From: a virus
Taxonomy: Duplodnaviria > Heunggongvirae > Uroviricota > Caudoviricetes > Crassvirales
DNA: 64,000 bases
Reading direction: 5' to 3' (one strand)
IMG/VR virus record: IMGVR_UViG_3300008267_000092
Location: 24,022 to 88,021 of that record
Below the pieces are notes generated by a model. That model was not told the origin of the DNA. It saw only the letters and a program-made list of their open reading frames with translations, and ran no database searches. Below are positions 6,176 to 64,000 of the stretch, one piece after another (position 1 is the first letter of the stretch; each line of letters opens with the position of its first letter). The translations under genes were made by a program, and so were the position numbers.

Positions 6176-6177
6176 TT

Positions 6178-6681: not shown

Positions 6682-6682
6682 T

Positions 6683-37293: not shown

Positions 37294-38199
37294 TTAAAAA
37301 AGTGACAGTTGATTAAAATTATTTACTTCGTCTATTATTTCTTGTGTTTTACGAATATAATATGAATAATTTATTTGATATTCGTCAAATGGTTTTTCTT
37401 TATACTCGTTAAAGATTTCAACACCTTCTCCCACATTAACATGTTGCATTGTACCCATACCATGCTTTTGTTTGAATAAATATGGTTTATTCTTGCTGAA
37501 ATAATACCTATTAAGTTGTTGCTGAATTTCGTTATTCCAATATACCACATAGTCTTTACTTATTTTATTAGATTTACAATAGTCATAGATGTGTAGGTTG
37601 TGTTTATCAGGATTTGATATATATTCATTAGGGGGTATCCCTCTAATATAATATTCATTCAATGCCTTAGATATAATTAATTCATTACATGAATCACCTA
37701 ATGGTATTTCTCTTTTATTGTCCTCATTAAAAGGTAATTTGAAAAAACCTTTACGTTTTATTTTACCACCACCTGTTTCACAAATATAATTATTGACATT
37801 TTTATAAATGATTTTATTATAATTCTCATGTTCAAATTCAAGATTAAATTTTCGAGCTGTAATATCTAAAATATCTTGATATTGTTTTAACATATGCATA
37901 GGTACTAACACTTCAATTCCGTCAGTATTTGCAGAGACAACTTGCCATTTGTTAATAATACAAATTTCAATACATTTAGTTAAAAATATTTGACCTATTA
38001 ATCGTAATCTCATTGCACCTTCAGGATAATATAACCAGCTATGGGAATTATCCAATAAACCTGATGTTGAATTAAGAATAAGTTTAAGAAATGAATCTTT
38101 AGCTTTATTTTTATTACGTTTAGCCTCAATACGTTCTGTTTTTACTTGTCTGTATCGATCTAACACTTCAGGTTGTCTAATACATCCATAATTTAACAT
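37294..38199 (-). CDS. family-B-like DNA polymerase, C-terminal fragment (motifs B and C)
   Basis: KLILNSTSGLL (KxxxNSxYG-like motif B), SANTDGIEVL (DTD motif C). Confidence 0.5.
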   Translation of the reverse strand: MLNYGCIRQPEVLDRYRQVKTERIEAKRNKNKAKDSFLKLILNSTSGLLDNSHSWLYYPEGAMRLRLIGQIFLTKCIEICIINKWQVVSANTDGIEVLVPMHMLKQYQDILDITARKFNLEFEHENYNKIIYKNVNNYICETGGGKIKRKGFFKLPFNEDNKREIPLGDSCNELIISKALNEYYIRGIPPNEYISNPDKHNLHIYDYCKSNKISKDYVVYWNNEIQQQLNRYYFSKNKPYLFKQKHGMGTMQHVNVGEGVEIFNEYKEKPFDEYQINYSYYIRKTQEIIDEVNNFNQLSLF

Positions 38200-38225
38200 T
38201 ATATTTGGATATAGTGCTTATATCC

Positions 38226-38966
38226 TTAATCCAGTATGTTTCCATCTGGCTGGACTATATCATTATTTAAAACTTTAACCCATTTAAAACCATACATTGA
38301 TGGTTTTTCACCACTACAACACGCGTAAATATTATGTACTTTATAGGTGGGATTATCAATTATAATATCCTTTACCTTTTTCCATTCTTTTATTAGTGTT
38401 GTACCGTTTTTAGAATATTGTAAAATTGTGTATTTTGTGTGAATATCCGATACCTTTTTCTTCATTTGTTCTTTTATTTCTGGATTTTCTTTCCAAAATT
38501 TAGATGAAGATTTACTTATTTTAATTCTTTCTTCAGGATTTTCATATCTTTTTTTATGTGAAATACTCATTTTAATACGTGTATTTTCATGACAAATCAT
38601 ATTTGTAGAAGAATCTCTTCTCAAATTGTATCCTAATTTAGAATCTGTTGTTTTGTAAAAATCTATCCAAAACAATTCTTTTTCTTTAATTATTGATTCA
38701 AAATCTTTAATATTTTTATCAATAATTTCAAGTACAAAATATTCAAATTTTTCTTTTCCGTATTTCCACCACGCATTTATAAAATATTGATTTTCTCTTT
38801 TGGGGTCTTTAGCGTTAAGTCCTCCAATATGATTATATATTCGTTGTCTAATATTTATAGATTTTCCAATATATTTTTTATCCGTTTCAATATTTCTAAT
38901 GCAGTAAATACCACAAAGACCCTCATGTAATTTATTTGTTTTCATATAAAATTTTATTTTATACAA
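38226..38966 (-). CDS. GIY-YIG homing endonuclease
   Basis: GIYCIRNIETDKKYIGKSINIRQRIYNH (GIY..YIG..R..H). Confidence 0.8.
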   Translation of the reverse strand: MYKIKFYMKTNKLHEGLCGIYCIRNIETDKKYIGKSINIRQRIYNHIGGLNAKDPKRENQYFINAWWKYGKEKFEYFVLEIIDKNIKDFESIIKEKELFWIDFYKTTDSKLGYNLRRDSSTNMICHENTRIKMSISHKKRYENPEERIKISKSSSKFWKENPEIKEQMKKKVSDIHTKYTILQYSKNGTTLIKEWKKVKDIIIDNPTYKVHNIYACCSGEKPSMYGFKWVKVLNNDIVQPDGNILD

Positions 38967-39222
38967 AGATACATTATTTTGAGGTAATATCCTAATTAAT
39001 TAGGGTAAATTTTACATAAATTTTATATTACTATAGCGTTTATGTGTTTTAAATACTTCCTGTTTAGTCTCTGAACCTTTATCCCATTAGGACACTTGGC
39101 TGCGGATTGACCAATCTTTATCTTTTTTACTATACTGAGGTAATTATTCTCACCACATAGTATGTTACCACCTATGTTTAGTAGATAAAGCTCTAAGGTT
39201 ATTCCCGTCAATTTAAGAAGTT
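38967..39222 (-). ncRNA. GC-richer structured segment, candidate group I intron core upstream of the GIY-YIG ORF
   Basis: GGACACTTGGCTGCGGATTGACC, GCGCCACTTTAACGC; the 70-aa ORF 39023..39235 here is probably not coding. Confidence 0.35.
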
Positions 39223-40194
39223 TTAATTGCGCCACTTTAACGCAATATCTGAGGTCATAATTTGTAAATCATTATCTGTATAATATTGTTCATTTTCATT
39301 AACAGAATGAAGACCTCCAATACCATATGTTAATCTAATATTTGTATTATTGTAATTAACTAAAAGTTCTTTACTGAATGTATCTTTACCATTTAATATT
39401 TCTAACCATAAATTTTGAAATATTGGTAATTTAAATTCAGGGTCAAAACCTTTTAAGATTTCATTTAAATACAATGTAGGTTTTTCATATCTTGTATTTC
39501 TGACTTCATTTATCTTTCTAGATGTTATCTTACAATAATCTGATAATAAAGCTTCTGATGCAATTTTTGGTGCATCCCAAGACCAACAATTTAAATTATA
39601 CTCTTTAATAATATTACCTCTTAAACGAATTTCTCCCTCCATTTCTAAAGTTAATAATTCTAATATACCTAAGTCGTGGGTATAATTATAATATCTTAAC
39701 TTAGGGAGATCTTCTAAAGATAATATAGAGTTTGGTTTAAATGGTAATTCTTGTACAACAGGATAACCTAATTGAATACCTAAAGATTTTAAACTTATCT
39801 TTTTAGAAATTCTTAACATTTTTGACCAATATGCAAACAAATCTATATCAATCCATTTAGATTTCATATATTTAATTTGTTTAACATCTTCGTCAAAAAT
39901 GTCATCTATTATTTTATCTGAGAAATATTTTAATTCTAGACATATATTTGAATATCCTAAGTACTTCAAATTTTCATAATTTTTAACTAAATACTTGACA
40001 ACCATGTTATCGTAATGTAATCCGTTAAAACTTATTAAAAATCCAGTATAACTTTTAAAAAATCCATATATTTTATCTATATCGTTTCTTTCTTCAGATA
40101 TTTCATAAAATGTAATTTCTTTAGTGACGAAATCTTTTATACCAACACAGAAATAATTTTTGTAACATTCTATATCGTATAGTTTTTTATTCAT
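39223..40194 (-). CDS. DNA polymerase N-terminal fragment with 3'-5' exonuclease motifs
   Basis: YDIECYKNYF (Exo I DxE), FNGLHYDNMVV (Exo II N..YD). Confidence 0.55.
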   Translation of the reverse strand: MNKKLYDIECYKNYFCVGIKDFVTKEITFYEISEERNDIDKIYGFFKSYTGFLISFNGLHYDNMVVKYLVKNYENLKYLGYSNICLELKYFSDKIIDDIFDEDVKQIKYMKSKWIDIDLFAYWSKMLRISKKISLKSLGIQLGYPVVQELPFKPNSILSLEDLPKLRYYNYTHDLGILELLTLEMEGEIRLRGNIIKEYNLNCWSWDAPKIASEALLSDYCKITSRKINEVRNTRYEKPTLYLNEILKGFDPEFKLPIFQNLWLEILNGKDTFSKELLVNYNNTNIRLTYGIGGLHSVNENEQYYTDNDLQIMTSDIALKWRN

Positions 40195-41195: not shown

Positions 41196-41696
41196 TTATT
41201 TATTAATGTAAGTTCTACCACAAGAAATATCTCGAATTGTAGTGTATGGTAAATTATATTGAATTGCTAAATTTCTTAAATTTAACTTTTCATTATTTTT
41301 TCTACGAGTTTTAATAATATTGTAAATAGTTAAAGCTATTTCATTATTTATTAACATGTTTGGTGGTGTATTTCCTTTTTCAAATCTTTTACCTATTGGT
41401 ACAATCATTCTGTTTTTATTATAACAATCTTTCATATTTTCACTTTGTGTACCTAAAAATAAATGATTAGGATTGACACATTTACGGTTATCACATTTAT
41501 GACAAACATTTAATGTTTTATCTGTAATTATACCATACGTTAACTCATAAGATAATCTATGAGAACTATGTGTTTTTTCTTTTGTTTTAAACGCACCGTA
41601 TCCATTTAATCTGCATGATGCAGTCCATTCCCAACAATCATCTTCTGATTTAATATTTACTTTATCCCAGAATTTTTTAATTTGTTGTTCATTCAT
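41196..41696 (-). CDS. HNH homing endonuclease
   Basis: [23 protein letters not shown] (His-Me finger). Confidence 0.8.
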
Positions 41697-41730: not shown

Positions 41731-41788
41731 CGTCTCCAAACATCATAGGATATACCCTGAGTTTGGAGACGGTGGGATTCGAACCCAC
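41731..41788 (-). pseudogene. tRNA 3'-half remnant (T-arm + 3' acceptor strand) fused to an 11-bp hairpin in the 5' leader of the HNH gene
   Basis: reverse complement GTGGGTTCGAATCCCAC-CGTCTCCA...; CGTCTCCAAAC pairs with downstream GTTTGGAGACG; no D/anticodon arm upstream. Confidence 0.5.
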
Positions 41789-42207
41789 GTCGATCAATGC
41801 GTTTGTTATATAATTTTATACAGCTTTTTGTAGTATTTAATCTTTAATGTCCCTTAAACACTACTAAATGTGGACAGCTATGGCAATGTTATACTCTAGC
41901 CAGTGTTGAGTTTGATTTGGGATTAGCGCACACGCGAATTCTAATTTACCAAATCATTTTAAACTATGCTGCCATTAATACTTCTTCTTTAGAAGAGTTA
42001 ATCAATGAAAAAACTTTAGCCATATTGGCTTTTGCTTGATTTTTGCCGTTTAAAATATTCACCTTAGTTTACAGTTATCTCTCTGGCTGAATTATATAAT
42101 TACTGACACAACCTCAAAGCCAGTCGTCCCCTTATTAATTGTTTAAAGTACAATCATAAACTTATTATTAGAAGGTGACACTTAATGTAATCACCTTCTA
42201 TAATTTA

Positions 42208-45753: not shown

Positions 45754-46215
45754 CTATGCTTCAGCCTTAACAGTACTTGCTTTAGCAAGAATGTCTGTAA
45801 GACTACGTTTCTTCGCAACAACTGCTTTAGCAGGAGTGTACGATTTAGGCATAAGAACCTCTGTCTCAACACCCTCAATGTCAACAGTAACCATATGACA
45901 TACAAGTGTTCCAGGAACACCTTTAGCTAAATCCTGCGCTTTGTCAATAGACATACGCATAGTAAGCTTATGGTTAGAAGCAGACTCGAAATCTTCATTC
46001 TTGAAGTCCTCTACAGATTGTTGAAAACCATATTCACTAACAGCTTTGAAGCTAACAATAGCAAATTCAGTACCGTCTTCCCAAACAAATGGTTCTCCGT
46101 CTCCGTCAGTATAACCAACGTGAGTTACTTCAATACCTTTATAAGGCACCATAGCTTGTTCAATTACAGGTTTAGATTCAATGATTCTTAACGCAATTTC
46201 TTGAGTAATTTCCAT
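45754..46215 (-). CDS. GC-richer, probably highly expressed early protein with Lys/Ala-rich C-terminal tail (possible DNA-binding)
   Basis: 153 aa; local GC clearly above genome background; strong terminator; C-terminal PAKAVVAKKRSLTDILAKASTVKAEA. Confidence 0.5.
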   Translation of the reverse strand: MEITQEIALRIIESKPVIEQAMVPYKGIEVTHVGYTDGDGEPFVWEDGTEFAIVSFKAVSEYGFQQSVEDFKNEDFESASNHKLTMRMSIDKAQDLAKGVPGTLVCHMVTVDIEGVETEVLMPKSYTPAKAVVAKKRSLTDILAKASTVKAEA

Positions 46216-46743
46216 AATATAACAGCTTTACGTCCTGCCGACGTTGTTTGTATTGGAAGTGCTGAGTCATCGCTACATTCCAAGATTAGACATATTTTAG
46301 GTATCTCGTAGCAATAAGCCACGGGTATATCCCAAAATTTAAAAAGGGTCGGGGCATGATCTTGGGTTATCCCACACTCACATCAACAATAAAAATTTTC
46401 AAAAATTTTAAAAAAAAATATTTTTCAATTCATCCATTTTAAGACACTATTTATACCTCAGATAATAACTAATACCAGACATGCTATTACAGTGTCTTAA
46501 ATCAAACAAAACACATCAAATTTTAGATGTTGCAAAGTTACGTAACATCGTTCAGGTTATATAATACAAAATATCCACCTAAACTAATTAACAAATCATT
46601 TTCTGCTAAGAAGAAAAGAAAGTAACCAAAGAAAAGAAGAATATATATAATATATTCTCCAATTGCGCGTACACGCGCGCGTATTTATATAGCTTTTATG
46701 TGTCAATAAAAAATATTTTAAAAATAACTGTTAAAAAATTAGG

Positions 46744-46770
46744 AATTGTCATTTATTTTTCGTATCTTTG
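46744..46770 (+). promoter_or_regulatory. Bacteroidetes-type promoter (weaker -33, TATCTTTG -7)
   Basis: aTTG...19 nt...TATCTTTG. Confidence 0.4.
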
Positions 46771-46890
46771 TAATGTTATAAACAACACGACAAAAACACA
46801 ACAGAGTCGGACCGAGAGGCATAAAGGTTTTGGCAGGGAGGTGTATTATAAAAGAGGAGGGTTACCTTTAGTAAAATAATTAAAAATAAA

Positions 46891-46922
46891 TTTGCATATT
46901 TTAAAAATATTTCGTATATTTG
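46891..46922 (+). promoter_or_regulatory. Bacteroidetes sigma-A-type promoter TTTG-N20-TATATTTG upstream of first + strand early gene
   Basis: TTTGCATAT...TTCGTATATTTGTA; matches -33 TTTG / -7 TAnnTTTG consensus; ATG at 46946. Confidence 0.55.
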
Positions 46923-46945
46923 TATAAAATAAAAATAACAACTTT

Positions 46946-47134
46946 ATGACAAGACCTAAGTTTAATATTGGTGAAAAAGTGTATCATAATACACCAGACT
47001 CCGATGAAGCTATTGTAGTAGATATACTTTATTCACATCTACTAGATAAAACAACATACATTGTATCTACAGGATTTGGTGCTGAATTTGAATGTATGGA
47101 ACACGAATTAACTGATGAAAAATTATTATTTTAA
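46946..47134 (+). CDS. hypothetical early protein
   Basis: 62 aa ORF after promoter. Confidence 0.4.
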   Translation: MTRPKFNIGEKVYHNTPDSDEAIVVDILYSHLLDKTTYIVSTGFGAEFECMEHELTDEKLLF

Positions 47135-47139
47135 ATAAC

Positions 47140-47364
47140 ATGGATAATGAAACAAATGGGGTTTGGTTTGAACCTACAATAATTTATAGTAACGATCAAC
47201 CTGCAGGATTTAAAGAGTGGTCTAAAGGAATCATCTATAATAAATACAAAATCACATTACCAGATGGTACATCTATGAATGCTAAAATGTTCTTAGATCT
47301 ACAACAAAGATTTGAATCAGGTAATTATACAACATATTTGGTTAACAGATATGTTGAACAATAA
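47140..47364 (+). CDS. hypothetical early protein
   Basis: 74 aa ORF. Confidence 0.4.
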   Translation: MDNETNGVWFEPTIIYSNDQPAGFKEWSKGIIYNKYKITLPDGTSMNAKMFLDLQQRFESGNYTTYLVNRYVEQ

Positions 47365-47391
47365 AATAATTTAAAAAAAAGTTACTAAAAG

Positions 47392-47422
47392 TTTGCATAT
47401 GTCAAATATTATTCGTATCTTT
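47392..47422 (+). promoter_or_regulatory. Bacteroidetes sigma-A-type promoter TTTG-N19-TATCTTTG
   Basis: GTTTGCATATG...ATTCGTATCTTTGTA, same extended motif as 46891 copy; ATG at 47449. Confidence 0.55.
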
Positions 47423-47448
47423 GTAGAGAATTTAAAATACATATAAAA

Positions 47449-47715
47449 ATGGTAGATACGATACACGAAGTAATAAGAGAAGATTTATTATCAAATCAAA
47501 AAGAATTATTCAATTTATATAATTATTACACACATAAATATAGAAGTAACGATAGATTATTAGACATTAATGTTGGGTTATTTATTAATGATAAACAACA
47601 ATTTGTAGCTCAAATTTATGTTGCTGATAAACATACTAAAATAAGAGAACAATTAATTCTGGATGAAAACCACACAGTTAAAGATACTAATATTATAGTT
47701 AAAAGATATGAATAA
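47449..47715 (+). CDS. hypothetical protein
   Basis: 88 aa ORF. Confidence 0.4.
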   Translation: MVDTIHEVIREDLLSNQKELFNLYNYYTHKYRSNDRLLDINVGLFINDKQQFVAQIYVADKHTKIREQLILDENHTVKDTNIIVKRYE

Positions 47716-48001
47716 AGATAAACACATTCACGTAAGTTCAACTGTCAATATCCCATGTAGCAATGGGATATTAGATGAAACAGTTGACTTTTATAAAAGG
47801 ACATTATTGTTTGATGCCGTCCGTAATGAAATTAATCTGGTCAAGTCAAAACAGAGTTACCCTCTAGATAACAGATCAGATGTAGAATTAACACTAGATG
47901 TAGTAATTGTATCTAAAGCTAGATACAATAGGTTAATTGAATTAGAAAAAGTTAATGAGCACACACACGAACAATTTAAAGAACTTAAAGTAAATGAGTA
48001 G
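47708..48001 (+). CDS. hypothetical protein
   Basis: 97 aa ORF. Confidence 0.4.
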   Translation: MNKDKHIHVSSTVNIPCSNGILDETVDFYKRTLLFDAVRNEINLVKSKQSYPLDNRSDVELTLDVVIVSKARYNRLIELEKVNEHTHEQFKELKVNE

Positions 48002-48254
48002 TTTTAATACATCCTCTCGTAAAAAAAGTCTTATGTCTGATGATCGTAAGATTAAAAAACACGTTACAGCTTTTTACAAAATCATAGATGAAATTGAAGC
48101 TTTAGCTGTTAAAATTAAAGAATTAAATCTTGAAGTTACAGAAGAAAATGTAAAAGACATTGCTTCAGATATTATGGGTAGAGATTTAGATTCAATGGAA
48201 ATCTTTTTATTAATGGGTAAATTAGAATCACATGTTGAACAAAGTGACAATTAA
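47994..48254 (+). CDS. hypothetical protein
   Basis: 86 aa ORF. Confidence 0.4.
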   Translation: MSSFNTSSRKKSLMSDDRKIKKHVTAFYKIIDEIEALAVKIKELNLEVTEENVKDIASDIMGRDLDSMEIFLLMGKLESHVEQSDN

Positions 48255-48507
48255 AAATGTATCTGCTTTTCTAGAAGGTAATTCTAAACAAATATTAGCA
48301 GGAATGGGATTACAACCTAAACATATTGAAGAGCAGGTTATGTACAGAGCATCCGTTTGTTCAGATTGTATGCAGGTAGGTAAATGTAAGATGTGTGGAT
48401 GCTCACTACCTGGTAAATTACATGTTGCAAAATCATGTAATCCTGAAAGATTTCCAGATTTAATGAGTAGTAAAGAATGGGAAGAATTTAAAACAAAATT
48501 AAAATAA
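48232..48507 (+). CDS. Cys-rich zinc-binding protein
   Basis: CSDCMQVGKCKMCGC...C; co-directional with operon (antisense ORF 48228..48530 rejected). Confidence 0.4.
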   Translation: MLNKVTIKNVSAFLEGNSKQILAGMGLQPKHIEEQVMYRASVCSDCMQVGKCKMCGCSLPGKLHVAKSCNPERFPDLMSSKEWEEFKTKLK

Positions 48508-48737
48508 TGATTAAAGAATATATAATACATAATGAACCTTTAAATGTTATTTTAGATAAGATTGCTACGTTTATTAAACATGTAACTAAGTTTGATGAAT
48601 TACATGGTAATTATAATTACGAAGTATCAATATCTAAAAATAGAGATTTATGGAGTGCAAAATTAAAAATTGACAATGAAACGAAACATGACACTAAAAT
48701 ATCTAAAACAATTACTGAAGCACCTTCAGTATTATAA
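48507..48737 (+). CDS. hypothetical protein
   Basis: 76 aa ORF. Confidence 0.35.
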   Translation: MIKEYIIHNEPLNVILDKIATFIKHVTKFDELHGNYNYEVSISKNRDLWSAKLKIDNETKHDTKISKTITEAPSVL

Positions 48738-48990
48738 TGATATGGCACCTTTCCCTGTATATGATACAGAATATGTTGAGGAGGTGAAAACTAAAATAAA
48801 AGAAATGGAAGAAAAAAGTAATGAATACGATGAGTTACCTGTAGTAGCTTGTAGACACTGTAAAAGTTTACATGTTGTATCTGATGAGTTAGACAATTCA
48901 ATATGCATGCGTTGTGGTTCTGTAAATGAATTACAGGAGTTTGAAAATATTTATAAATATAAAGAATTTAAAGATGGCGAGAATTCCTAA
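48670..48990 (+). CDS. zinc-ribbon protein
   Basis: CRHCKS...CMRCGS. Confidence 0.4.
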   Translation: MTMKRNMTLKYLKQLLKHLQYYNDMAPFPVYDTEYVEEVKTKIKEMEEKSNEYDELPVVACRHCKSLHVVSDELDNSICMRCGSVNELQEFENIYKYKEFKDGENS

Positions 48991-49639
48991 TACCGAGAAG
49001 AGAACATTAAAGACTGAGCCAAAATTAATGGTTGATCTTAATTTTGAACAGAAAGAATTTGTAGAATTGTTTTATCAGTACGATGTTAATTTCTTATTAG
49101 GAGATTTTGGATCAGGTAAGTCATTAGCTGCTGTACATACAGCATTAAAAGCTTTTAGAAAAAAGCAATTTAATAATATTTGGATTACTAGACCTATGAT
49201 TAAAAATAATCTAGGAGCTTTACCTGGGGAGATTGAAGATAAATTAAGTCCTTACATATTCCCAATTATTCAAAATTTAGAAGTTTGTCAAGGTAAGGAA
49301 ATGACTGAAAAGATGCAGAAAGAAGGTTTAATTAAGATTATGCCAATAGAGGTTGCCAAAGGTGTAACATTTATGAAATCTGTAGTTATTGTTGATGAAT
49401 TTCAAGATATGGATTACGAAGATTTTAGAACAATTTTAACTAGATTGGGTAATGGAAGTAAAATGATATTTTGTGGATCCACCCAACAAGTAGCAAGACA
49501 AATTGGTAAAAACAGTTGTATTGAAAGAGTTGAAACTTTAAAAAATTCTAATCTTGTAGGTTTTAAAACACTAACTTCAAATCATAGAAATCCAATATTA
49601 ACTGAAATAATTAAATATTTAGAAACTAAAAATGAATAA
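48926..49639 (+). CDS. phoH: PhoH-like P-loop ATPase
   Basis: LLGDFGSGKS (Walker A), VVIVDEFQDMD (Walker B), FCGSTQQV. Confidence 0.55.
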   Translation: MNYRSLKIFINIKNLKMARIPNTEKRTLKTEPKLMVDLNFEQKEFVELFYQYDVNFLLGDFGSGKSLAAVHTALKAFRKKQFNNIWITRPMIKNNLGALPGEIEDKLSPYIFPIIQNLEVCQGKEMTEKMQKEGLIKIMPIEVAKGVTFMKSVVIVDEFQDMDYEDFRTILTRLGNGSKMIFCGSTQQVARQIGKNSCIERVETLKNSNLVGFKTLTSNHRNPILTEIIKYLETKNE

Positions 49640-50027
49640 TACTAAAATTGCGAATCTTAATGTTAAATTAAAAGATTTATTCTTTAAATGGTTGGATGTA
49701 ACTAAAGCGTGGCATAAACTAAATAATCAACAACAGCAAGTATTAGCACTTTTATTATATTATCATTATCGATACAAAAAAGATATAACAAATAATAAAG
49801 TTCTTTGGAGACTTTTATTTGATTACGATACAAAAATTAAAATAAAAGAAGATCCTGTATTTGAAAAAGAATTGAGTGATAGTGCTTTAAATAATATTTT
49901 TTCAATATTAAGAAAAAAGAAGATTATTATAGATGGTGAAATATCACCATTGTATATTCCCGAGTTAGCATCTAAAAGTAATAATTTTAAAATCATTTTT
50001 AATTTTAACATCATAGACAATGACTAA
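49632..50027 (+). CDS. hypothetical protein
   Basis: 131 aa ORF. Confidence 0.4.
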   Translation: MNNTKIANLNVKLKDLFFKWLDVTKAWHKLNNQQQQVLALLLYYHYRYKKDITNNKVLWRLLFDYDTKIKIKEDPVFEKELSDSALNNIFSILRKKKIIIDGEISPLYIPELASKSNNFKIIFNFNIIDND

Positions 50028-50295
50028 ATCAGACAATGATAAAATTAAAAAACTTATACATCGTATAGGGTTAAAGTATAATCTTAGAGATGAAGATGTA
50101 AATAAAATAATAACTTCACCATACATATATGTTAGACAGATTATCACAAATATGGAAATTGAAGAGAATATAACAGAAGACGAATTTAACAAATTAAAAA
50201 CAAATTTTATATTTCCAAATATTGGAAAATTATATATTAAATACGGTACTGTATTGAGGTACCAAAATCAAAAAAAACATGATAGAACAAAGTAA
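50020..50295 (+). CDS. hypothetical protein
   Basis: 91 aa ORF. Confidence 0.4.
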   Translation: MTKSDNDKIKKLIHRIGLKYNLRDEDVNKIITSPYIYVRQIITNMEIEENITEDEFNKLKTNFIFPNIGKLYIKYGTVLRYQNQKKHDRTK

Positions 50296-50644
50296 TTTTA
50301 CGCAGGAAGAAGTATTAAAAATCGCTAAAGATTTTAACATTGAACCAATGTTCAATAAAGTGATTATCACATTAAACAAATTAGAAGAAGATGGTAATCT
50401 TGTATTATCTGAAAACATGTTGTCTGAAGAACAATATATTGTATCTAAGGGTGATACGGTTCGAGGTTTAGAAATTGGTCAAAAGGTAATTATTGATATT
50501 GAAAGAATGATGATTACTGTAAAATCAGAATCTGTAAATGCTTATGAGGATGTAAAACAAATTAAAATTGAACCTATATTGTATAATCATACAATGTTTG
50601 CAATCATTGAAGATAGATTAATTAAAGCTAAATATAAAAACTAA
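50279..50644 (+). CDS. hypothetical protein
   Basis: 121 aa ORF. Confidence 0.4.
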   Translation: MIEQSNFTQEEVLKIAKDFNIEPMFNKVIITLNKLEEDGNLVLSENMLSEEQYIVSKGDTVRGLEIGQKVIIDIERMMITVKSESVNAYEDVKQIKIEPILYNHTMFAIIEDRLIKAKYKN

Positions 50645-50645
50645 T

Positions 50646-50921
50646 ATGGAATTATTTTTACACATTATTGTAGGTCTAGCAATTGTAGGTCTTATTTATG
50701 AATATATACGATTACTTAAAGGTTATGAAAATCTTGCAGAAGTATTTGTAGATTCTGAAGCGGAATATTTTTATAACGAAAAAGAACTTCAGAAAACAAT
50801 TGAAGAATTAAAACTTGAAATTGAATTACTTAAAACAGAGTCTGAAAAACAAACTCTTGAAGTAACACCTAAACCTGTAAGAAAGAAACCCGTTTCTAAA
50901 AAAATACCAAACGTAGAATAA
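50646..50921 (+). CDS. small membrane/coiled-coil protein
   Basis: N-terminal TM helix IIVGLAIVGLIY, coiled coil. Confidence 0.4.
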   Translation: MELFLHIIVGLAIVGLIYEYIRLLKGYENLAEVFVDSEAEYFYNEKELQKTIEELKLEIELLKTESEKQTLEVTPKPVRKKPVSKKIPNVE

Positions 50922-51181
50922 TGAAATTATTTGAAATGCGTGACTTCAATCTCCAAGTGATTCCAGAAGCTTGGGGATTGTTGCCGTTTAAGGCAATACT
51001 TAAACGAGATAAAAACCGTAATAAAGAAACTGCATTTAAGGAAATGTTATTTATATATTTTTATTGTGATATACGATCAGATTATGTTTATATAACAGAC
51101 AATGTAGTTAGAACTACAGAAATTAAAAAAGATATTGGACTTTCTGAAGACTGGAAAATAGATGATGTAATCAATCGTTAA
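50921..51181 (+). CDS. hypothetical protein
   Basis: 86 aa ORF. Confidence 0.4.
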   Translation: MKLFEMRDFNLQVIPEAWGLLPFKAILKRDKNRNKETAFKEMLFIYFYCDIRSDYVYITDNVVRTTEIKKDIGLSEDWKIDDVINR

Positions 51182-51430
51182 AAGCTGCGGATGATATATC
51201 TAAATATCTTGAAAAAACAGATGCATTATTAGATGAGAGAACGATTAATGGTGGTACTGTTACAACATTGGCTACAATTACAGCATCGCTTAAATCTGTC
51301 CCAGTAATTATGCGAGATCTTAAAGCAGCATATAAAGAAGTTTTAAGTGAACAAAAAGAAATGGAAGGTAGAACTAAAGGAAGTAAAACGATGGGACTTT
51401 TTGAGGATGGTCTTGGTGAAATAGGATAAT

Positions 51431-52897
51431 ATGGAAGAAATATATTTTAAAGAGGAAGCTAGAAATAAACTTTTAAGTGGTATAAATAAATTACACGATG
51501 CTGTAGCATCTACAATGGGACCAAATGGTAAGACGGTTATTATAAGTGATGTGTATGGTAAACCTAAAGTAACTAAAGATGGTGTATCTGTTGCAAGAGC
51601 GATTTCATTTAAAGATCCTGTTGAAAATATGGGTGCAGAATTAATCAAAGAAGTAGCAGAACTTACTGTAGATATCGCGGGAGATGGTACTACTACAGCT
51701 ACAGTTTTAGCTACTGCTTTTATTAACAATTTAATAACCTTTGAATCTAAAGACATTAATAAAGCCTTTGATGAAATAATACCTAAAGTATTAGAACAAT
51801 TAAAAATAAATTCTAGAACATTGGAACGTGATAATATTAAACACGTTGCTACAATTTCTGCAAACAACGATATAACTATAGGTGAGGTTATTCAAAACGC
51901 ATATAACCATTCAGATATTATTAAAATTGAAGAATCAACATCTAATAGTGATATATTGGAATTAGTTGAGGGTATGCAGTTAGATGTATCTTATTTATCA
52001 AAAGCATTTGTAAATATTGATCGTAAAGCAGAATGTGAATTGACTAATCCACATGTATTAATTATAGATGGTAAACTTGAGAACTTAAAAGTTTTTGAAC
52101 AATTATTAAACACTGTTGCTGCAAACAACGAATCATTATTAATTATAACAGAACATGTTTCAGAACAAGTATTAAGAATGCTTGAAACAAATGCATTAAG
52201 CGGTAATATTAAACTATGTGTAATTAAATCACCTGGATTTGGACAACATAGAAAAGATTTACTGAAGGATATTGCAAAGTTTACACAATCTACAATTATA
52301 ACAGATTTAAGCAAACCTTATACGTTAAGTATTGCAGGTAAACTGCAGTCTGTAAGAGTTACTAAAAATAATTCTATCTTGGTTAAGGATTCATCAATAG
52401 ATGTTACAGAAGCAATTGCAGATTTAAATGAATTGTCTAAATCTATAGATCTATCTGAACACGATAAGGATTTGATTATCCAACGAAGAGATAGACTTAC
52501 AGGTAAGATATCAATCATTAAAGTTGGAGGTGTTTCTGAGATTGAGATGAAAGAACGTAAAGATAGATATGATGATGCGGTATTAGCTGTAGCCTGTGCA
52601 TTAGAAGAAGGAATTGTACAAGGTGCGGGTTTAGCATTATATCACAGTATTCAAAATGTTTATGATGTAAAATATGATGAAAAAACACCATATCATTTTA
52701 TAATGAAAAGTCTACTTTCACCATATGATAACATTTGTAAAAATGGGACATGTATTCCTGTAATGAGTAATATGTTTGATCAAAACATTATAGATCCACT
52801 TAAAGTTACAAGATGTGCATTAGAGAATGCAGTATCTGTAGCTAAAACAATATTATCAACAGACACAATTATTTTAAATGAGCGTCAATGGAGTTAA
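51431..52897 (+). CDS. groEL: GroEL/Cpn60-family chaperonin (488 aa, lacks C-terminal GGM tail)
   Basis: ARNKLLSGINKLHDAVASTMGPNGKTV...VTKDGVSVARAI...GDGTTTATVLA collinear with GroEL N-terminus/ATP-binding loop. Confidence 0.85.
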   Translation: MEEIYFKEEARNKLLSGINKLHDAVASTMGPNGKTVIISDVYGKPKVTKDGVSVARAISFKDPVENMGAELIKEVAELTVDIAGDGTTTATVLATAFINNLITFESKDINKAFDEIIPKVLEQLKINSRTLERDNIKHVATISANNDITIGEVIQNAYNHSDIIKIEESTSNSDILELVEGMQLDVSYLSKAFVNIDRKAECELTNPHVLIIDGKLENLKVFEQLLNTVAANNESLLIITEHVSEQVLRMLETNALSGNIKLCVIKSPGFGQHRKDLLKDIAKFTQSTIITDLSKPYTLSIAGKLQSVRVTKNNSILVKDSSIDVTEAIADLNELSKSIDLSEHDKDLIIQRRDRLTGKISIIKVGGVSEIEMKERKDRYDDAVLAVACALEEGIVQGAGLALYHSIQNVYDVKYDEKTPYHFIMKSLLSPYDNICKNGTCIPVMSNMFDQNIIDPLKVTRCALENAVSVAKTILSTDTIILNERQWS

Positions 52898-55149
52898 ACA
52901 ATTATCAAACACCTATAGATGATAAACTGAAAGCGTCATTACATAAAGAAATATATGGTGACATTTTAGAATATGTATCTAGTGTTAAGTTTATACAAAG
53001 ACTTGTTGCACCTGAAAGCATTAGAGGGTTTGCTAAAGATAGGGAAAAAGAAGTTGAGTTTTATAATGATGGTAGAATTAAAATTGATTTAACAAACCCT
53101 CACATTCTTGAAGATATGGACTTTTTTAGAGAAAAGGCTTTATTTTTTGAAAAGAATGGTAGATATACAAATATACCTCCTAATAGTAATCCTAAGTCTG
53201 AGTATGCTGAGTTTTGGAAAGAAGAACTTCGTAAATGGAAACATGGTGTTGTGAGACCTAGTGATGGTGAATGGATTCCAGGAACATTATATTTTTATTG
53301 GAACTACAGTCCAATATGGTTAGTTGAAAAGGTAGGTAAGGAATCTGCAAACAAGAAGACTAAGGGAGAACGTCTTCGTAAGTTCCCTAAACCATGGTTA
53401 GGTGATTACTTATATTTTCATTATACACAACAAGCTAAGGATAACGGTAAACATGGTAAAGTATTAAAGACTAGGGGAATTGGTTTCAGTTTTAAAAATG
53501 CTGCAGAATCACCAAGAAATATGTATGTATATCCTGGTTCAGGTAATCCTAATTTTCACTTAGCTTCAGATAAAACCTTTTTATCAGGTGATAAAGGTAT
53601 ATGGGGTAAAATCTTAGATGTTTTAGACTGGGTTGCAGAACACACACCTTTACCAAAGATGAGAATTGTCGATGGTAAAAAAGCAATGGAACTTCAACTT
53701 GGTTACCCTGATGAGTATGGTAACCGTAAAGGATTGTTATCTTCTGTATTTGGAATATCCTTAAAAGATAATCCTGATAAAGCAAGGGGTATTCGTGGAC
53801 CACTTATTCATTATGAGGAAGACGGATTATTTCCTGACTTAGAAAAAGCATGGAACGTAAATAGAAAAGCGGTAGAGGATGGTGATGTTGCATTTGGATT
53901 TATGTTGGCAGGAGGTACAGGTGGTACACAAGGTGCATCATTTGCAGGATCTGAAAAGTTATTTTATAAACCTGATGCATATAACATTTATGGTTTACCA
54001 AATGTATATGATAAAAACAATAATGGTGAAACAGAATGTGGTTTCTTTTGGGGAGCATATTTAAATCGAAATAACTGTTACGATGAAACAACAGGAGAAC
54101 CTGATGTAATCAAGGCTTTAGTGGAGATACTTTCTGATAGATTTGTTGTTAAATATGGATCATCAGATTCATCAGCAATTACACAAAAGAAAGCTGAGGA
54201 ACCTATTACACCACAAGAGGCAATTATGCGTACTGAAGGTACTGTATTTCCTGTTGCAGATATTAAAGAATATCTTGAAAGTGTGGCTCCTAAAAAAGAA
54301 TCATTTTTAGCAGAACATTATGTTGGAGAATTAGTTCTTAATAACCTAGGTGATGTAGAATGGAAACCTAATGGAGATATACATCCATTGAGAGCATACG
54401 ATTCATCTGATGGTAATAAAACTGGATGTTTAGAGATATTTGAGATGCCTCGAAAAAACGCTAATGGTGATATCCCTAGAGGTAGATATATTTTTGGTAT
54501 TGACCCTATTGATGCCGATACAGGTACATCATTATTTAGTATAATTGGTTTAGATACATTTACAGATAGAATTGTGTGTGAATATTCAGGTAGACCTAGA
54601 TTAGCTAATGAGGCTTACGAAATCGCGTTACGTACACTTAAATTTTATAATGGTGAAGCAAATTATGAAAGTAACTTAAAAGGTTTATTTAGTTACTTTG
54701 ATAGTAAAAACTGTTTACACTTTTTATCAGATGTACCTCAAGTATTACGTGATATGGATATGGTTAAAGCAACTAACCTATATGGTAATAAAGCTAAAGG
54801 TACACACGCAAATAAAGAAATTAATAAGTGGGGTAGATTGTTACAATCACAATGGATGCAAACTAAAGCCCACGGTGATGATGAAGATAATAGACTTAAT
54901 CTTCATCGTATTCGAAGTATTCCTTATTTAGAAGAATGTATTGCCTGGAATAGTGATGGTAACTTTGACCGTGTATCTGCAATGGGTATGTTGATGATTT
55001 TACGTGAAGATAGATTTAAACGTACTAATTCTTTAAAAGGAAACGTAGATAAAACTGTTAAAAAATTATCAAATGATTCGTTCTTTAATAAAAATTATCA
55101 AACGTCAAACACAATAGCTATTACTAATACTTTGAATTTCAATAAATAA
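52888..55149 (+). CDS. terminase large subunit (putative)
   Basis: 753 aa; C-terminal RNase-H-like nuclease motif FGIDPIDADTGTSLFSIIGLD; deviant Walker A-like KTRGIGFS; position immediately upstream of portal. Confidence 0.5.
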   Translation: MELNNYQTPIDDKLKASLHKEIYGDILEYVSSVKFIQRLVAPESIRGFAKDREKEVEFYNDGRIKIDLTNPHILEDMDFFREKALFFEKNGRYTNIPPNSNPKSEYAEFWKEELRKWKHGVVRPSDGEWIPGTLYFYWNYSPIWLVEKVGKESANKKTKGERLRKFPKPWLGDYLYFHYTQQAKDNGKHGKVLKTRGIGFSFKNAAESPRNMYVYPGSGNPNFHLASDKTFLSGDKGIWGKILDVLDWVAEHTPLPKMRIVDGKKAMELQLGYPDEYGNRKGLLSSVFGISLKDNPDKARGIRGPLIHYEEDGLFPDLEKAWNVNRKAVEDGDVAFGFMLAGGTGGTQGASFAGSEKLFYKPDAYNIYGLPNVYDKNNNGETECGFFWGAYLNRNNCYDETTGEPDVIKALVEILSDRFVVKYGSSDSSAITQKKAEEPITPQEAIMRTEGTVFPVADIKEYLESVAPKKESFLAEHYVGELVLNNLGDVEWKPNGDIHPLRAYDSSDGNKTGCLEIFEMPRKNANGDIPRGRYIFGIDPIDADTGTSLFSIIGLDTFTDRIVCEYSGRPRLANEAYEIALRTLKFYNGEANYESNLKGLFSYFDSKNCLHFLSDVPQVLRDMDMVKATNLYGNKAKGTHANKEINKWGRLLQSQWMQTKAHGDDEDNRLNLHRIRSIPYLEECIAWNSDGNFDRVSAMGMLMILREDRFKRTNSLKGNVDKTVKKLSNDSFFNKNYQTSNTIAITNTLNFNK

Positions 55150-55214
55150 TAAATAATTATTTGGAATAATTAATAAAATTTGTTATATTAGCAAGTTATA
55201 TAAAAATAGAAAAA

Positions 55215-57608
55215 ATGCCAAGAATAAATAACTTAACATTACCTCTGCAGAGATTAGCTTTTAAGAAAAAAGATAAACAGTGGAGGACGGATTGTATTGA
55301 TTATGCAGATCGACATTCCTTCTATAACAATGAAAGAGTTCGTAAAAGTTTACAAAATAAGATTATAAATCTTAATCTTTATAATGGTATTGTAGATATT
55401 AGAGACTTAACTAATGTTGTAAACCCACATCAGGTTGATGCAAGTTTTGTACCTGATAATATCCCACACCACCCAATACTCGTCCCTAAAATTGATCTTT
55501 TAGTGGGTGAAGAAATAAAACGAAGATTTGATTATTCAATCATTGTTACAAATCCTGATGCTATTACCAAAAAAGAAGAAGATAAGAAGGAGTTTTTAAA
55601 ACAGAAACTTGTTGAATTTCTTCAGAGTCATTATTCAGATGAGGAATTGAAAGTTAAAATGGAGGAGTTGGAAAAACACATGAAATATAATTGGCAAGAC
55701 CTTCGTGAAAAAACAGCTAATCAAATATTAAAACATTACAGTCAAGAACAACGTTTTGACCTCACATTTAATTTAGGATTTAAAGATGCCTTAATCTTCG
55801 CAGAAGAAATTTATCAATGTGATATTATACACGATGAACCTGTATTGCTTAAACTTAACCCTTTAAAAGTACACTCTGTAAGATCTGGTAATTCAGATAG
55901 AATTGAAGATTCTTCTATAATTATTATACAAGATCACTGGAGTCCAAATAAAATTGTAGATGTATATCACGATGAGTTAAAACCTGAAGATATTGATTAC
56001 ATTTTAACATATAGTACAAATTCATCTAAAGGATCTTATTCAGATGATCAAAATAACCACGTACTACTTCGCGACGCATTGAATACAGGGGTTGAGGGTA
56101 TGTATGATACCATTTTTAATTTAGCAGAACTTAACGGGCACTTTTTTGGGTCTAACTACACCGATGACACAGGAAACATTAGAGTACTTAAAGTATTTTG
56201 GAAATCAATTAAACAGATTAAAAAAATTAAGTATTACGATGAATATGGTGAAGAACAATATAAGATAGCGTCTGAAGAATACATTCCTAATAAGGATATG
56301 GGTGAAGAAGTTACTACCATGTGGGTTAATGAATGGTGGGAAGGTGTTAAGGTAGGTAAAGATATTTATTTAAATATTAGACCTCGAAAAGTTCAATATA
56401 ATAAAATACATAATCCTTCACTCTGTCATCCAGGAATTGTAGGTCAAATTTATAATACAAGTCAATCTAAAGCTGTTTCATTAGTTGATAGATGTAAAAA
56501 CTATCAATACATGTATGATGTAATTTGGGATAGACTGAATAAAGCTATTGCTACAAACTACGGTAAGATATTTGAATTAGACCTTGCTAAAGTTCCTGAA
56601 AACTGGGAAGTTGAAAAATGGATGCACTTTGCTGTAGTAAATAAGATTGCAGTTATTGATTCATTTAAAGAGGGTCAACAAGGTGCAGCTACAGGTAAAC
56701 TTGCAGGTTCTATGAATACTCAAGGTGGACGTGTGATGGATATGGAAACAGGTTCTTATATTCAACAACACATTCAATTATTGGAGTTTATTAAAATGGA
56801 AATGGGTGAAATTGCAGGAGTATCTGCTCAACGTCAAGGACAAGTTTCAAATCGAGAAACTGTAGGTGGTGTTGAACGATCTGTAAATCAATCTAGTCAT
56901 ATTACAGAATGGTGGTTTATGTTGCATGAACAGTGTAAAATTCGTGTACTTGAAACATTTATAGAAACTGCTAAAGTTGCATTAAAAGGGAATAATAAAA
57001 AAGTACAATTTCTTTTAGATGATCAATCAATACAAGTTTTAAATTTAGAAGATAATGATTTTTCAGAACAAGACTACGGAATTGTAATTACAACTTCTGG
57101 TAAGACAATGGAGCTTGAACAGATGATTAAACAAAATGCTCAAGCATTTTTACAAAATGGAGGTTCTATGTCTACAATCATGGATATATATTTTAGTTCA
57201 TCGTTAATGGATATGCGTAGAAAACTTGAAGATGCTGAAGAGCAAATGCATCAACGACAATCTGAACAATCTCAAGAAGCTAATAAAATTCAACAAGAAC
57301 ACAATCAGGCATCTATTGATTTAGAAAATAGAAAACTTGAACTTGAAGATTTGAAAAATCAACGAGATAATCAGACTAGATATGATATTGCACTTTTATC
57401 ACAAGAAACTAATGCTGGTGATTTAAATGGTGATGGGGTTGAAGACCCGATGGAGCGTGAAAAATTTAATCTGAGTGTAGATCAAAAGCGTCAAGATTAC
57501 ATTTTAAAAATGAAACAACTTGAGAATGATATGAGTAAACATAAGGATAACGTAGCATTAACTAAGGAAGCACACGCAATTTCAAGAATAAAAAAGTCAA
57601 CAAAATAG
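55215..57608 (+). CDS. portal protein (putative)
   Basis: 797 aa, follows terminase; long C-terminal coiled-coil/charged region. Confidence 0.45.
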   Translation: MPRINNLTLPLQRLAFKKKDKQWRTDCIDYADRHSFYNNERVRKSLQNKIINLNLYNGIVDIRDLTNVVNPHQVDASFVPDNIPHHPILVPKIDLLVGEEIKRRFDYSIIVTNPDAITKKEEDKKEFLKQKLVEFLQSHYSDEELKVKMEELEKHMKYNWQDLREKTANQILKHYSQEQRFDLTFNLGFKDALIFAEEIYQCDIIHDEPVLLKLNPLKVHSVRSGNSDRIEDSSIIIIQDHWSPNKIVDVYHDELKPEDIDYILTYSTNSSKGSYSDDQNNHVLLRDALNTGVEGMYDTIFNLAELNGHFFGSNYTDDTGNIRVLKVFWKSIKQIKKIKYYDEYGEEQYKIASEEYIPNKDMGEEVTTMWVNEWWEGVKVGKDIYLNIRPRKVQYNKIHNPSLCHPGIVGQIYNTSQSKAVSLVDRCKNYQYMYDVIWDRLNKAIATNYGKIFELDLAKVPENWEVEKWMHFAVVNKIAVIDSFKEGQQGAATGKLAGSMNTQGGRVMDMETGSYIQQHIQLLEFIKMEMGEIAGVSAQRQGQVSNRETVGGVERSVNQSSHITEWWFMLHEQCKIRVLETFIETAKVALKGNNKKVQFLLDDQSIQVLNLEDNDFSEQDYGIVITTSGKTMELEQMIKQNAQAFLQNGGSMSTIMDIYFSSSLMDMRRKLEDAEEQMHQRQSEQSQEANKIQQEHNQASIDLENRKLELEDLKNQRDNQTRYDIALLSQETNAGDLNGDGVEDPMEREKFNLSVDQKRQDYILKMKQLENDMSKHKDNVALTKEAHAISRIKKSTK

Positions 57609-57612
57609 CTAT

Positions 57613-57660
57613 TAGTGACAATCTCAATTTAAAAGGTTGTCACTAATTAATTTGCTTTTA
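57613..57660 (+). terminator. rho-independent terminator
   Basis: TTAGTGACAA...TTGTCACTAA stem followed by T-rich tract. Confidence 0.5.
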
Positions 57661-57709
57661 AATAAAAAAAACATTATATTTGCAAACTTTATAACATAGG
57701 GAGAAAATT

Positions 57710-58789: not shown

Positions 58790-58814
58790 AGTATTAATAA
58801 TTAAATAAATAAAT

Positions 58815-60320: not shown

Positions 60321-60336
60321 TAATATGTAGGTTTTT

Positions 60337-60368
60337 AGAGGTGTACCTTAAACACCTCTTAATTTTAA
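60337..60368 (+). terminator. rho-independent terminator AGAGGTGT-accttaa-ACACCTCT + T-tract
   Basis: 8-bp perfect stem. Confidence 0.6.
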
Positions 60369-60375
60369 TAAATTA

Positions 60376-61245: not shown

Positions 61246-61247
61246 CT

Positions 61248-61985: not shown

Positions 61986-62011
61986 ATTATAAATAATAAA
62001 AATAAAAAATT

Positions 62012-63034: not shown

Positions 63035-63053
63035 ACATTATAAAATTAACCTT

Positions 63054-63088
63054 AAAGGAAGAAGACATAAATCTTCTTCCTTTTTTTA
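63054..63088 (+). terminator. rho-independent terminator AAAGGAAGAAGA-cataaa-TCTTCTTCCTTT + T7
   Basis: 12-bp stem + U-tract. Confidence 0.7.
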
Positions 63089-63098
63089 TATCTATAAA

Positions 63099-63674: not shown

Positions 63675-63676
63675 TA

Positions 63677-64000
63677 TGTTACCAGTTAATGATAAAAATC
63701 ATACATCATTAGTAATAGGTTCAATTGAAAAGATTTACAACAAATCTAAAATTTATGGTAAGTTTAAAATTAAAAATTTATACTTTATAGATATAATTTC
63801 AAACTTATTAAAAAGTAAATGTGTAACACTAACTAATGAACAGACTAATGAATTATTATCAATTTATTATGCTGTAACTTTTCAATCTGATGAAATTTGT
63901 AGACCTACAATTTGTAAAACATATCAAACTTCAGCAAGACCTAAATTTATACAAGCCGATAGTGAAGATTGTAACGATGTACCTGCTTTTCCTAAAATAT
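63677..64000 (+). CDS. hypothetical protein (3' partial, runs off window)
   Basis: ATG at 63677, 108 codons with no stop to window end. Confidence 0.4.

Follow-up and report, generated by a model that had tools for sequence, protein, structure and literature searches.

The 730-bp intergenic spacer at positions 46216-46945 of a 64,000-nucleotide stretch of viral DNA (positions 24,022 to 88,021 of IMG/VR virus record IMGVR_UViG_3300008267_000092; the whole stretch is referred to here as the window) is probably the central divergent transcription-control region of a crAss-type phage similar to Cellulophaga phage phi14:2, in which a conserved element of ~65 bp, termed the core, would act as the start signal of the leftward replicative module. 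An initial annotation of this DNA had described the spacer as the only divergent strand switch in the window, and this holds, since the three gene blocks form a single divergent junction. The features that it listed (A/T tracts, purine-rich repeats, an alternating-AT run and a G+C-rich palindrome) were all found at their coordinates when the sequence was inspected, and its guess at a crAss-like phage was correct, given a large terminase ~40% identical to those of cr111, cr126, and IAS virus. It had further suggested a master regulatory switch. This is supported in the sense that the spacer is the homolog of the phi14:2 spacer between early and middle/late genes, but not for the elements on which the suggestion relied, because the palindrome and the purine repeat are limited to close relatives and are not the conserved ones.

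CrAss-like phages rank among the most abundant Bacteroidota viruses and, to our knowledge, all inject a giant two-barrel RNA polymerase. The polymerase family to which the phi14:2 enzyme, gp66, belongs is related to the eukaryotic RNA-interference polymerase QDE-1. Work on phi14:2 is reportedly the sole transcription study of a crAss-like phage and is said not to have identified the recognition signal of the enzyme. Across its whole length, the window matches phi14:2 almost gene for gene in content and order, including the virion RNA polymerase (vRNAP) with its DFDID motif, the gene order of the replicative module, and the GroEL-TerL-portal series. The open reading frame (ORF) at 5-6175 is 35% identical to phi14:2 gp66 and has the same DFDID catalytic motif. 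Because the gene order matches, the spacer at 46216-46945 can be equated with the divergent g110/g111 spacer of phi14:2. In phi14:2, this spacer separates the early/replicative module, which is rifampicin-resistant and read by the injected gp66, from the middle/late module, which is rifampicin-sensitive and read by the host RNA polymerase (Drobysheva et al., bioRxiv 10.1101/2020.03.07.982082). In vitro, gp66 transcribes single-stranded DNA well and double-stranded DNA poorly.

The two spacers have the same position, promoters, and core, and both phages have a unit that combines a promoter with a purine-rich RNA. They differ in that phi14:2 lacks the -7-like box of the core, the leader hairpins HP1 and HP2, the mirror repeat, and the GC tract, all of which the window has. 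The homology of the spacers was recognized by direct reading of the phi14:2 genome and not by nucleotide search; nucleotide searches of cultured phages with the whole region or with the core alone returned no matches.

Conservation across the locus peaks in the core. About 15 independent relatives were gathered by protein and pattern searches (related loci are denoted by L-numbers), among which L012 and L070 are the closest that are full length. The spacer is 80-100% identical to theirs as compared to 50-80% for the surrounding genes, with peaks of identity at 46274-46353, 46434-46553, and 46634-46673. The first 40 nt of the core are 100% identical to L012, where flanking coding sequence is 50-80% identical. 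Only three things persist in distant relatives, namely the A/T tract, the core, and one defined type of rightward promoter. A profile of the core built from 14 lineages gave one match in the window (E 4e-22), one in the complete phi14:2 genome, upstream of g111 (record positions 97992-98047; E 4e-11), and one in each related locus. L097 has a diverged copy within the same divergent layout. The first gene in the replicative direction is immediately preceded by the core in the window, phi14:2, and all relatives, and the core is kept where these first genes are non-homologous (g111 in phi14:2 versus the 153-aa gene of the window). On the minus strand of the window the core reads GTGAGTGTGGGATAACCCAAGATCATGCCCCGACCCTTTTTAAATTTTGGGATATACC (46383-46326).

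Searches of Rfam with the core or the leader gave no match at the gathering score and only chance-level hits to eukaryotic long non-coding RNAs at E<=10, and exact 15-mer seeds in IMG/VR returned mostly chance hits. A host-derived or prophage origin of the core was rejected, as it had zero matches in 185,579 bacterial genomes. A candidate helix within the core (GAGAGUGGG with CCC-G-ACUCU) was also considered and did not hold across lineages. We also scanned for the primary-sigma pattern of Bacteroidota, TTTG-N18-21-TAnnTTTG. No host-type promoters in sense orientation were detected within the replicative block of either the window or phi14:2 and, because of this, the core is the only conserved candidate signal heading that block.

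Every relative, phi14:2 and L097 among them, has an A/T tract at the same place upstream of the core, with variation in its sequence. In the window, positions 46381-46440 have 13% G+C and comprise a pair of A5T4 blocks spaced 10 bp apart and then A9. The window has nine more A/T-only runs of at least 25 nt, and the A/T richness observed here is thus unspecific as a mark of an unwinding element. Four short metagenomic contigs (L071, L078, L079, and L080) end within ~100 nt of the core or the A/T tract; such breaks could be due to assembly failure in extreme A/T sequence or could hint at a physical genome end. In a separate observation, a segment homologous to 46155-46572 is inverted in L003/L011 (IMGVR_UViG_3300020050_004378; L011 9971-10388). 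This cassette, made up of the core and leader plus the opening 36 codons of the 153-aa gene, moved as a unit to a site between homologs of 47336 and 47469 and is fused to a 97-aa ORF there, through either a real rearrangement or a misassembly.

At the downstream end of the core, a stem-loop (HP3), which can form in every lineage, begins at the GGG that follows the T-run; in phi14:2 the G-run is GGGG at record position ~98031-98034. In 15 of 16 lineages, HP3 folds more stably on the sense strand than on the antisense strand (summed -221.9 vs -156.2 kcal/mol). When 12 lineages were aligned, 84.6% of cells paired as compared to 25-55% with slid partners, and three pairs had changed on both sides, with frequent G-C/G-U switches. 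Inner stems vary by lineage (CGUGGC/GCUACG, CCCAUG/CGUGGG, CCGUUC/GAGCGG, CAUUGC/GCAGUG, and UAUGGC/GCUGUG) and that of L075, L076, L078, L079, L090, and phi14:2 differs while its location is the same. Because the sense fold is favored and the pairs covary, these comparisons indicate that HP3 is an RNA feature of the minus (gene-sense) strand and that the RNA includes the GGG. We propose that HP3 is the 5'-terminal stem-loop of the leftward transcript. RNAalifold applied to MAFFT alignments was uninformative for both strands, the hairpins being out of register, and folds of individual sequences together with sense/antisense comparison were used instead.

Two further hairpins with compensatory stems, HP1 (ACGUC/GACGU, AUAGC/GCUAU, AUAGA/UCUAU, and AAGCA/UGCUU across relatives) and HP2 (GGAAUG../..CUUCC, GGAAUGA/UCAUUC, and GAAUAAU/AUUAUUC), are confined to the clade of the window. 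The leader that contains them precedes the gene for a conserved 153-aa protein, for which no homolog was identified in the cultured-phage collection. The structural model of this protein is confident (predicted local distance difference test [pLDDT] 86) and weakly resembles OB-fold single-strand-binding proteins, suggesting that the protein probably has an OB fold and is possibly a single-stranded DNA-binding protein.

The three full matches to the primary-sigma pattern in the window (46891, 47392, and 57651) are all on the plus strand, upstream of plus-strand genes, and the host-type sites of phi14:2 precede g110, g108, and g092 in orthologous placing, the window site at 57651 being nearly identical to the one before g092. 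The site nearest the rightward block, P_R2, has the position and motif of the mapped phi14:2 promoter P110; P_R2 and the next site are nearly identical to positions 47757-47788 and 47147-47178 of the phi14:2 locus (L085), the next site with few base differences from P108. Both P108 and P110 were mapped as middle promoters by primer extension, and promoters of their class were transcribed in vitro by sigma-70 holoenzyme (bioRxiv 10.1101/2020.03.07.982082). A variant site, P_R1, has an extended motif (ATTAGGAATTGTCATTTATTTTTCGTATCTTTG) that aligns with the other promoters of the window, a near-match in phi14:2 (L085 47403-47437), and a copy in L097. As shown by motif and positional homology, the predicted tandem rightward promoters (TTTG/TTAG-N20-TAnnTTTG) start the middle/late block.

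The upstream promoter, P_R1, would first yield a purine-rich leader or small RNA of ~95 nt. This RNA, with the 3' end AAGAGGA(R)GG(K)TACCTTT, is conserved in L012, L070, L003/L011, L097, and phi14:2, and promoter and RNA are kept together in L012, L070, L003, L097, and phi14:2 (window 46739-46871, plus strand; phi14:2 record 97395-97535; L097 5450-5600, minus strand). Its setting varies. The unit heads the rightward block in the window and the RNA is the leader of the following gene in L097, whereas in phi14:2 the unit is in the g109/g110 spacer, antisense to both neighbors, where old ORF annotations were removed. No credible ORF covers 46777-46871, the RNA is weakly structured (z = -1.0), it has no Rfam family, and no description of the unit was found in the literature examined. 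A scan of the spacer for small conserved ORFs likewise revealed none; the ORFs were short, and one that was examined had lost its ATG in L012.

Table 1. Coordinates of features in and around the divergent spacer (positions are those of the window; promoters, hairpins, and RNAs are predicted).
Feature	Position	Strand	Description
Plus-strand block with gp66 and gp65 homologs	5-10804	+	Homologs of phi14:2 gp66 and gp65, converging on the replicative module
Replicative module	11025-46215 (read 46215->11025)	-	Split DNA polymerase, DnaB-like helicase, Sak4, primase, amidoligase cluster, ribonucleotide reductase, thymidylate synthase
153-aa gene	45754-46215	-	Opening gene of the leftward module (replicative; 'early' by analogy); its ATG is the left edge of the spacer
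Leader	46216-46298	-	Structured 5' leader
HP1	46230-46244	-	Hairpin with conserved loop GGCG/GGCAG
CA-rich single strand	46245-46252	-	ACAAACAA
HP2	46253-46283	-	Hairpin
Conserved single strand	46286-46292	-	UGUCUAA
HP3	46299-46333	-	Starts at GGG (46333-46331) right after the T-run; inner stem CGUGGC-UUAUU-GCUACG (46323-46307)
Core	46318-46383	-	~65 bp, GTGAGnGT..TAACCnAnnATCATnCCCC(G)ACnCTTTT..AAnTTTTGGGATATACC
Phased A/T tract	46386-46436		A5T4, A5T4, A9, T5, directly upstream of the core
Block of closest relatives	46438-46565	-	Inverted repeat TTAAGACACT (46438-46447)/AGTGTCTTAA (46491-46500), 10 bp, 43 nt apart
-7-like box	46540-46533	-	TAACTTTG, within block 46438-46565
Palindromes (two)	46537-46546, 46556-46565		GTTAYRTAAY
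Homopurine mirror repeat	46607-46642		H-DNA type; the GAAAAGAA repeats of the initial annotation
(AT)n run	46640-46656		
GC tract	46664-46684		Alternating pyrimidine/purine, G+C-rich, 21 nt, Z-DNA type
P_R1	46739-46770	+	Host sigma-A variant, TTAG-N20-TATCTTTG
Purine-rich RNA	46777-46871	+	~95-nt non-coding RNA or leader; conserved 3' block AAAGGTTTTGG..AAGAGGAGGGTTACCTTTAG
P_R2	46891-46922	+	TTTG-N20-TATATTTG, full host sigma-A match, 24 nt before ATG 46946
62-aa gene	46946-47134	+	Opening gene of the rightward block; its ATG is the right edge of the spacer
Rightward block	46946-64000	+	Small ORFs, PhoH, GroEL, terminase, portal
Next rightward promoter	47392-47423	+	Full TTTG/TAnnTTTG match, nearly identical to phi14:2 P108
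Promoter after portal	57651-57682	+	Full match, before the gene following portal; counterpart upstream of phi14:2 g092

The layout of the leftward signal, with an invariant block followed by a T-rich stretch, the GGG, and a stem-loop at the G-run, resembles promoters of phage-encoded polymerases. Leftward RNA synthesis would start at or just upstream of the GGG, with the T-rich stretch as the melting region and the phased A/T tract as a conserved upstream bend or easily opened flank; in the clade of the window, the two further covarying hairpins would follow HP3 before the start codon of the putative OB-fold gene. Because the homologous module of phi14:2 is read by gp66 and the window encodes a gp66 homolog with DFDID, we infer that the core would be the recognition and start site for a gp66-type virion polymerase or for an accessory factor. 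Its location at the head of the replicative unit of a genome that encodes a gp66 homolog fits a promoter of this class, for which no defined consensus exists, and no paper defining a gp66 promoter motif was found among the later papers searched. Given the preference of gp66 for single-stranded DNA, the conserved, meltable A/T tract would be a plausible helper, as possibly would the nearby supercoil-responsive tracts. A stricter version of this proposal is that the core is the promoter of the injected two-barrel virion polymerase, initiating at the GGG, and that this single start drives the entire ~35-kb replicative module, with the A/T tract and, in some lineages, the cluster of sequences prone to non-B DNA exposing a single-stranded template. 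We advance this version tentatively, as possible rather than probable.

Comparison with better characterized phages provides partial parallels. As in N4, an injected polymerase reads early genes and gp66, like N4 vRNAP, prefers single-stranded templates in vitro; also as in N4, a small G/C-clamped hairpin is present at the proposed start (GGGGAGUAUCCCC in phi14:2, with a 5-bp stem and a 3-nt loop, and GGGGAUAUACCCC in L097). However, gp66 is a two-barrel enzyme and the N4 polymerase a T7-like single-subunit one, the three N4 promoters have a stem of 5-7 bp and a 3-nt loop upstream of +1 whereas one site is found here, and the conserved core sequence is mostly upstream of the hairpin and not self-complementary. 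The window itself has GGG-AUAUA-CCC (3 bp) in one copy per genome, which differs from an N4-type hairpin promoter. Similarity to T7 promoters and the phi10 leader is seen in the ~20-40-bp invariant block, the A/T-rich melting stretch, the initiating GGG, and the stem-loop from +1. The differences are that the polymerase families are unrelated and that the core is single copy whereas T7 promoters are many.

Several observations weigh against assigning the start of the replicative module to the core. The authors of the phi14:2 study found no common motif among early 5' ends, reported no early motif, and did not describe the core (bioRxiv 10.1101/2020.03.07.982082). A single copy per genome would be uncommon for the promoter of a phage polymerase, given three in N4 and many in T7, and cr108_1 (Asinivirinae) lacks the core. 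Moreover, the leftward start site is itself deduced from sequence, the core of most relatives includes a sequence close to the host -7 box (AAATTTTG; perfect TAATTTTG in L075, L080, L082, and L090), as would suit an activator-dependent host promoter, and -7-like boxes are also present in the A/T tract upstream, such that the core could be transcribed and act as RNA.

The sequences emphasized by the initial annotation were evaluated separately. The purine/pyrimidine run and the mirror repeat exceed chance in the window. The mirror repeat is perfect, with 15-nt arms and a 6-nt spacer (TAAGAAGAAAAGAAA-GTAACC-AAAGAAAAGAAGAAT), and is the longest in the 64 kb and the only homopurine one; mirror repeats with arms of at least 11 nt gave ten overlapping hits at five sites, as compared to 0-6 hits in 20 shuffles. 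It was found only in the closest relatives and is absent from phi14:2, L031, L075, L076, and L097. The 21-nt alternating run of the GC tract is the longest in the window and contains its sole (CG)n run with n of at least 3. Counterparts are TGCGCGCACATACACGCGTATATATATA in L012 and TACGCGCGTGTATATA in L033, so that alternation is kept in two clades, and the tract is absent from L031, L075, L076, L097, and phi14:2. On sequence criteria for H-DNA (homopurine mirror arms of at least 10 nt) and Z-DNA (alternating purine/pyrimidine with CG/CA steps over at least 12 nt), the two elements are predicted to be prone to these forms, and sequences prone to H-DNA, cruciform, and Z-DNA cluster within 80 bp.

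The palindrome had been expected to be conserved and to act as an operator. It is not kept as a palindrome even in relatives that are ~80% identical, in which only the purine/pyrimidine alternation persists, and no operator role was shown for it. Its stability as a hairpin does not exceed that of dinucleotide shuffles (z = -1.0). The hairpin at 46664-46683 scored as weakly terminator-like on the plus strand, but its stability is not above that of shuffles, its U-run is interrupted, its stem is degraded in L012, and no plus-strand promoter was found upstream. The mirror repeat, (AT)n run, and GC tract would be lineage-specific DNA prone to non-B structure between divergent units, which at most would modulate supercoiling or insulate the units and would not be core machinery.

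Other explanations of the core assign it to RNA or to the host polymerase. The core could be an RNA element within a longer leader transcribed from an upstream promoter, such as TAACTTTG (46540-46533) or one of the -7-like boxes of the A/T tract, where it would bind a phage protein; a candidate is the first gene product, which would repress its own translation in the manner of T4 gp32. HP3 takes in the GGG and, in some lineages, UUUU, which requires that the 5' end of the RNA be no further downstream than the GGG; several lineages have -7-like boxes 20-35 nt upstream of the core (perfect TAAATTTG in L075); and the modeled first gene product resembles an OB-fold binder of single-stranded DNA or RNA. 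The parallel with the T4 gene 32 operator extends to a long conserved structured leader with unstructured A/U/C-rich stretches, here CA- and U-rich. However, no pseudoknot was found, no covarying helix was seen within the core itself, and the upstream boxes lack positional conservation and would arise by chance in an A/T tract. In addition, the core precedes an unrelated gene in phi14:2, which argues against autoregulation by the 153-aa protein, and we consider this explanation unlikely. Even less likely, in our view, is that the core is an unusual promoter of the host RNA polymerase, with a -7 box nAAnTTTG (46340-46333), no -33 TTTG, and the block TCATGCCCCGAC as the site of a phage activator, like a T4 MotA box. 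A -7-like box is indeed present in all members of the wider clade of the window, is a perfect TAATTTTG in four lineages, and the GC-rich block of the core sits where a -33 element would be. Yet phi14:2 has no TAnnTTTG there (TGGAATTG), nor does L097 (CGAACTTTGG gives AACTTTGG), and both keep the rest of the core; early transcription of phi14:2 is rifampicin-resistant; and a start 4-7 nt past the -7 box would exclude from the RNA the GGG that joins the conserved sense-strand pairing.

Two further alternatives concern the spacer more broadly. The initial annotation had raised a replication origin, and the region or part of it could be one besides its promoter role, through A/T unwinding, through the cluster prone to non-B DNA, or through priming or activating transcription from the core as at the T7 primary origin and T4 oriF/oriG. 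At these origins, and at those predicted at the strand switch of Carjivirus communis (PMC10983915), a promoter likewise lies beside A/T-rich DNA at a skew inflection and strand switch. The GC-skew check that had been suggested did place the cumulative minimum inside the region (46.6 kb), with the maximum at 10.7 kb, where two gene blocks converge; the phased tract of 13% G+C adjoins a unique conserved site, and the sequences prone to H-DNA, cruciform, and Z-DNA are clustered in an 80-bp stretch. However, the flip follows gene orientation exactly, and since coding-strand skew is equal in all three blocks (+0.155 to +0.184), gene orientation alone explains it; a skew inflection at the strand switch in these genomes carries no independent information on the origin. 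Nor did other evidence lend independent support. There is no initiator gene, of the RepL type or otherwise, beside the region, no significant direct-repeat families that would represent iterons were found, the core being single copy, and DnaA boxes (<=1 mismatch) are absent from 46216-46945 and below chance in number across the window. The A/T tract is upstream of the leftward start rather than downstream, unlike the layout of the T4 and T7 origins, and the non-B cluster is absent from phi14:2, L031, L075, L076, and L097. An origin role is doubtful. By comparison, we find it nearly an even question whether the mirror repeat, AT run, and GC tract lack specific function and represent simple-sequence DNA that expands and drifts by slippage in a spacer. 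Their restriction to close relatives, the (TA)n/(TAA)n microsatellite at the same place in the L033/L073 clade, and the unremarkable stability of the GC hairpin are consistent with slippage, which in dinucleotide units would keep purine/pyrimidine alternation automatically. Slippage alone poorly explains the symmetric change of both mirror arms between the window and L012 and L070, where the mirror is still perfect; positions 46634-46673 are 90% identical to L012/L070, above flanking coding sequence; and the distance of ~80 bp from the GC tract to the -7 box of the next rightward promoter is held in two clades (the window and L033). The symmetric arm change and the constant spacing argue mildly for some constraint.

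Between the A/T tract and the mirror repeat, the block at 46438-46565 is 88-95% identical to L012/L070 and folds at -28.9 kcal/mol on the minus strand (z = -3.4) as compared to -14.3 on the plus strand. The block is shared by L012, L070, L011, and L081, whereas L033/L073, L031, L075, L076, and phi14:2 lack it. The first of its two palindromes has undergone a CG -> TA change in L012 that leaves it palindromic. From its sequence, the block may be an accessory small RNA or a regulator site/operator pair. At the same spacer position, L031 (~880-1230) and L076 (~3560-3760; minus strands of the loci) share a non-coding RNA gene of ~230 nt with its own GTATCTTTGT-type promoter, a hairpin-plus-U terminator, and the conserved stretch GGTATGACnACTTCnAnAACACTGGnnAGCCAAG; these RNAs have no family in Rfam.

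Additional observations were made within the replicative block. A full-length transfer-messenger RNA (tmRNA) gene was identified at 41763-42131 on the minus strand by ARAGORN (tag peptide ...VLMAA) and by Rfam (RF00023, 55.3 bits; gathering 47), beside an HNH endonuclease gene (41196-41696). The DNA polymerase (phrog_1252; 37294-40194, minus strand) is split into ORFs 39223-40194 and 37294-38199, between which lies a homing-endonuclease ORF (38226-38966) with its own GTATCTTTGTA-type promoter (38962-38972). A 97-nt direct repeat of 75% identity (31204-31300/32413-32509), with a 38-nt repeat nearby (31548/32775), suggests that a gene start was duplicated in tandem along with the sequence upstream of it.

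Collectively, these results indicate that the spacer belongs to a known type, in which early and middle/late promoters diverge as in the homologous region of phi14:2, and that it contains an undescribed single-copy core that is deeply conserved. Two further undescribed conserved non-coding RNAs are flagged in the same spacer. If the proposed role is true, the core would be the first defined promoter for the two-barrel virion polymerase family. The core is shared by the experimentally tractable phi14:2 and its uncultured relatives, which makes the question of how this polymerase recognizes its template directly testable.

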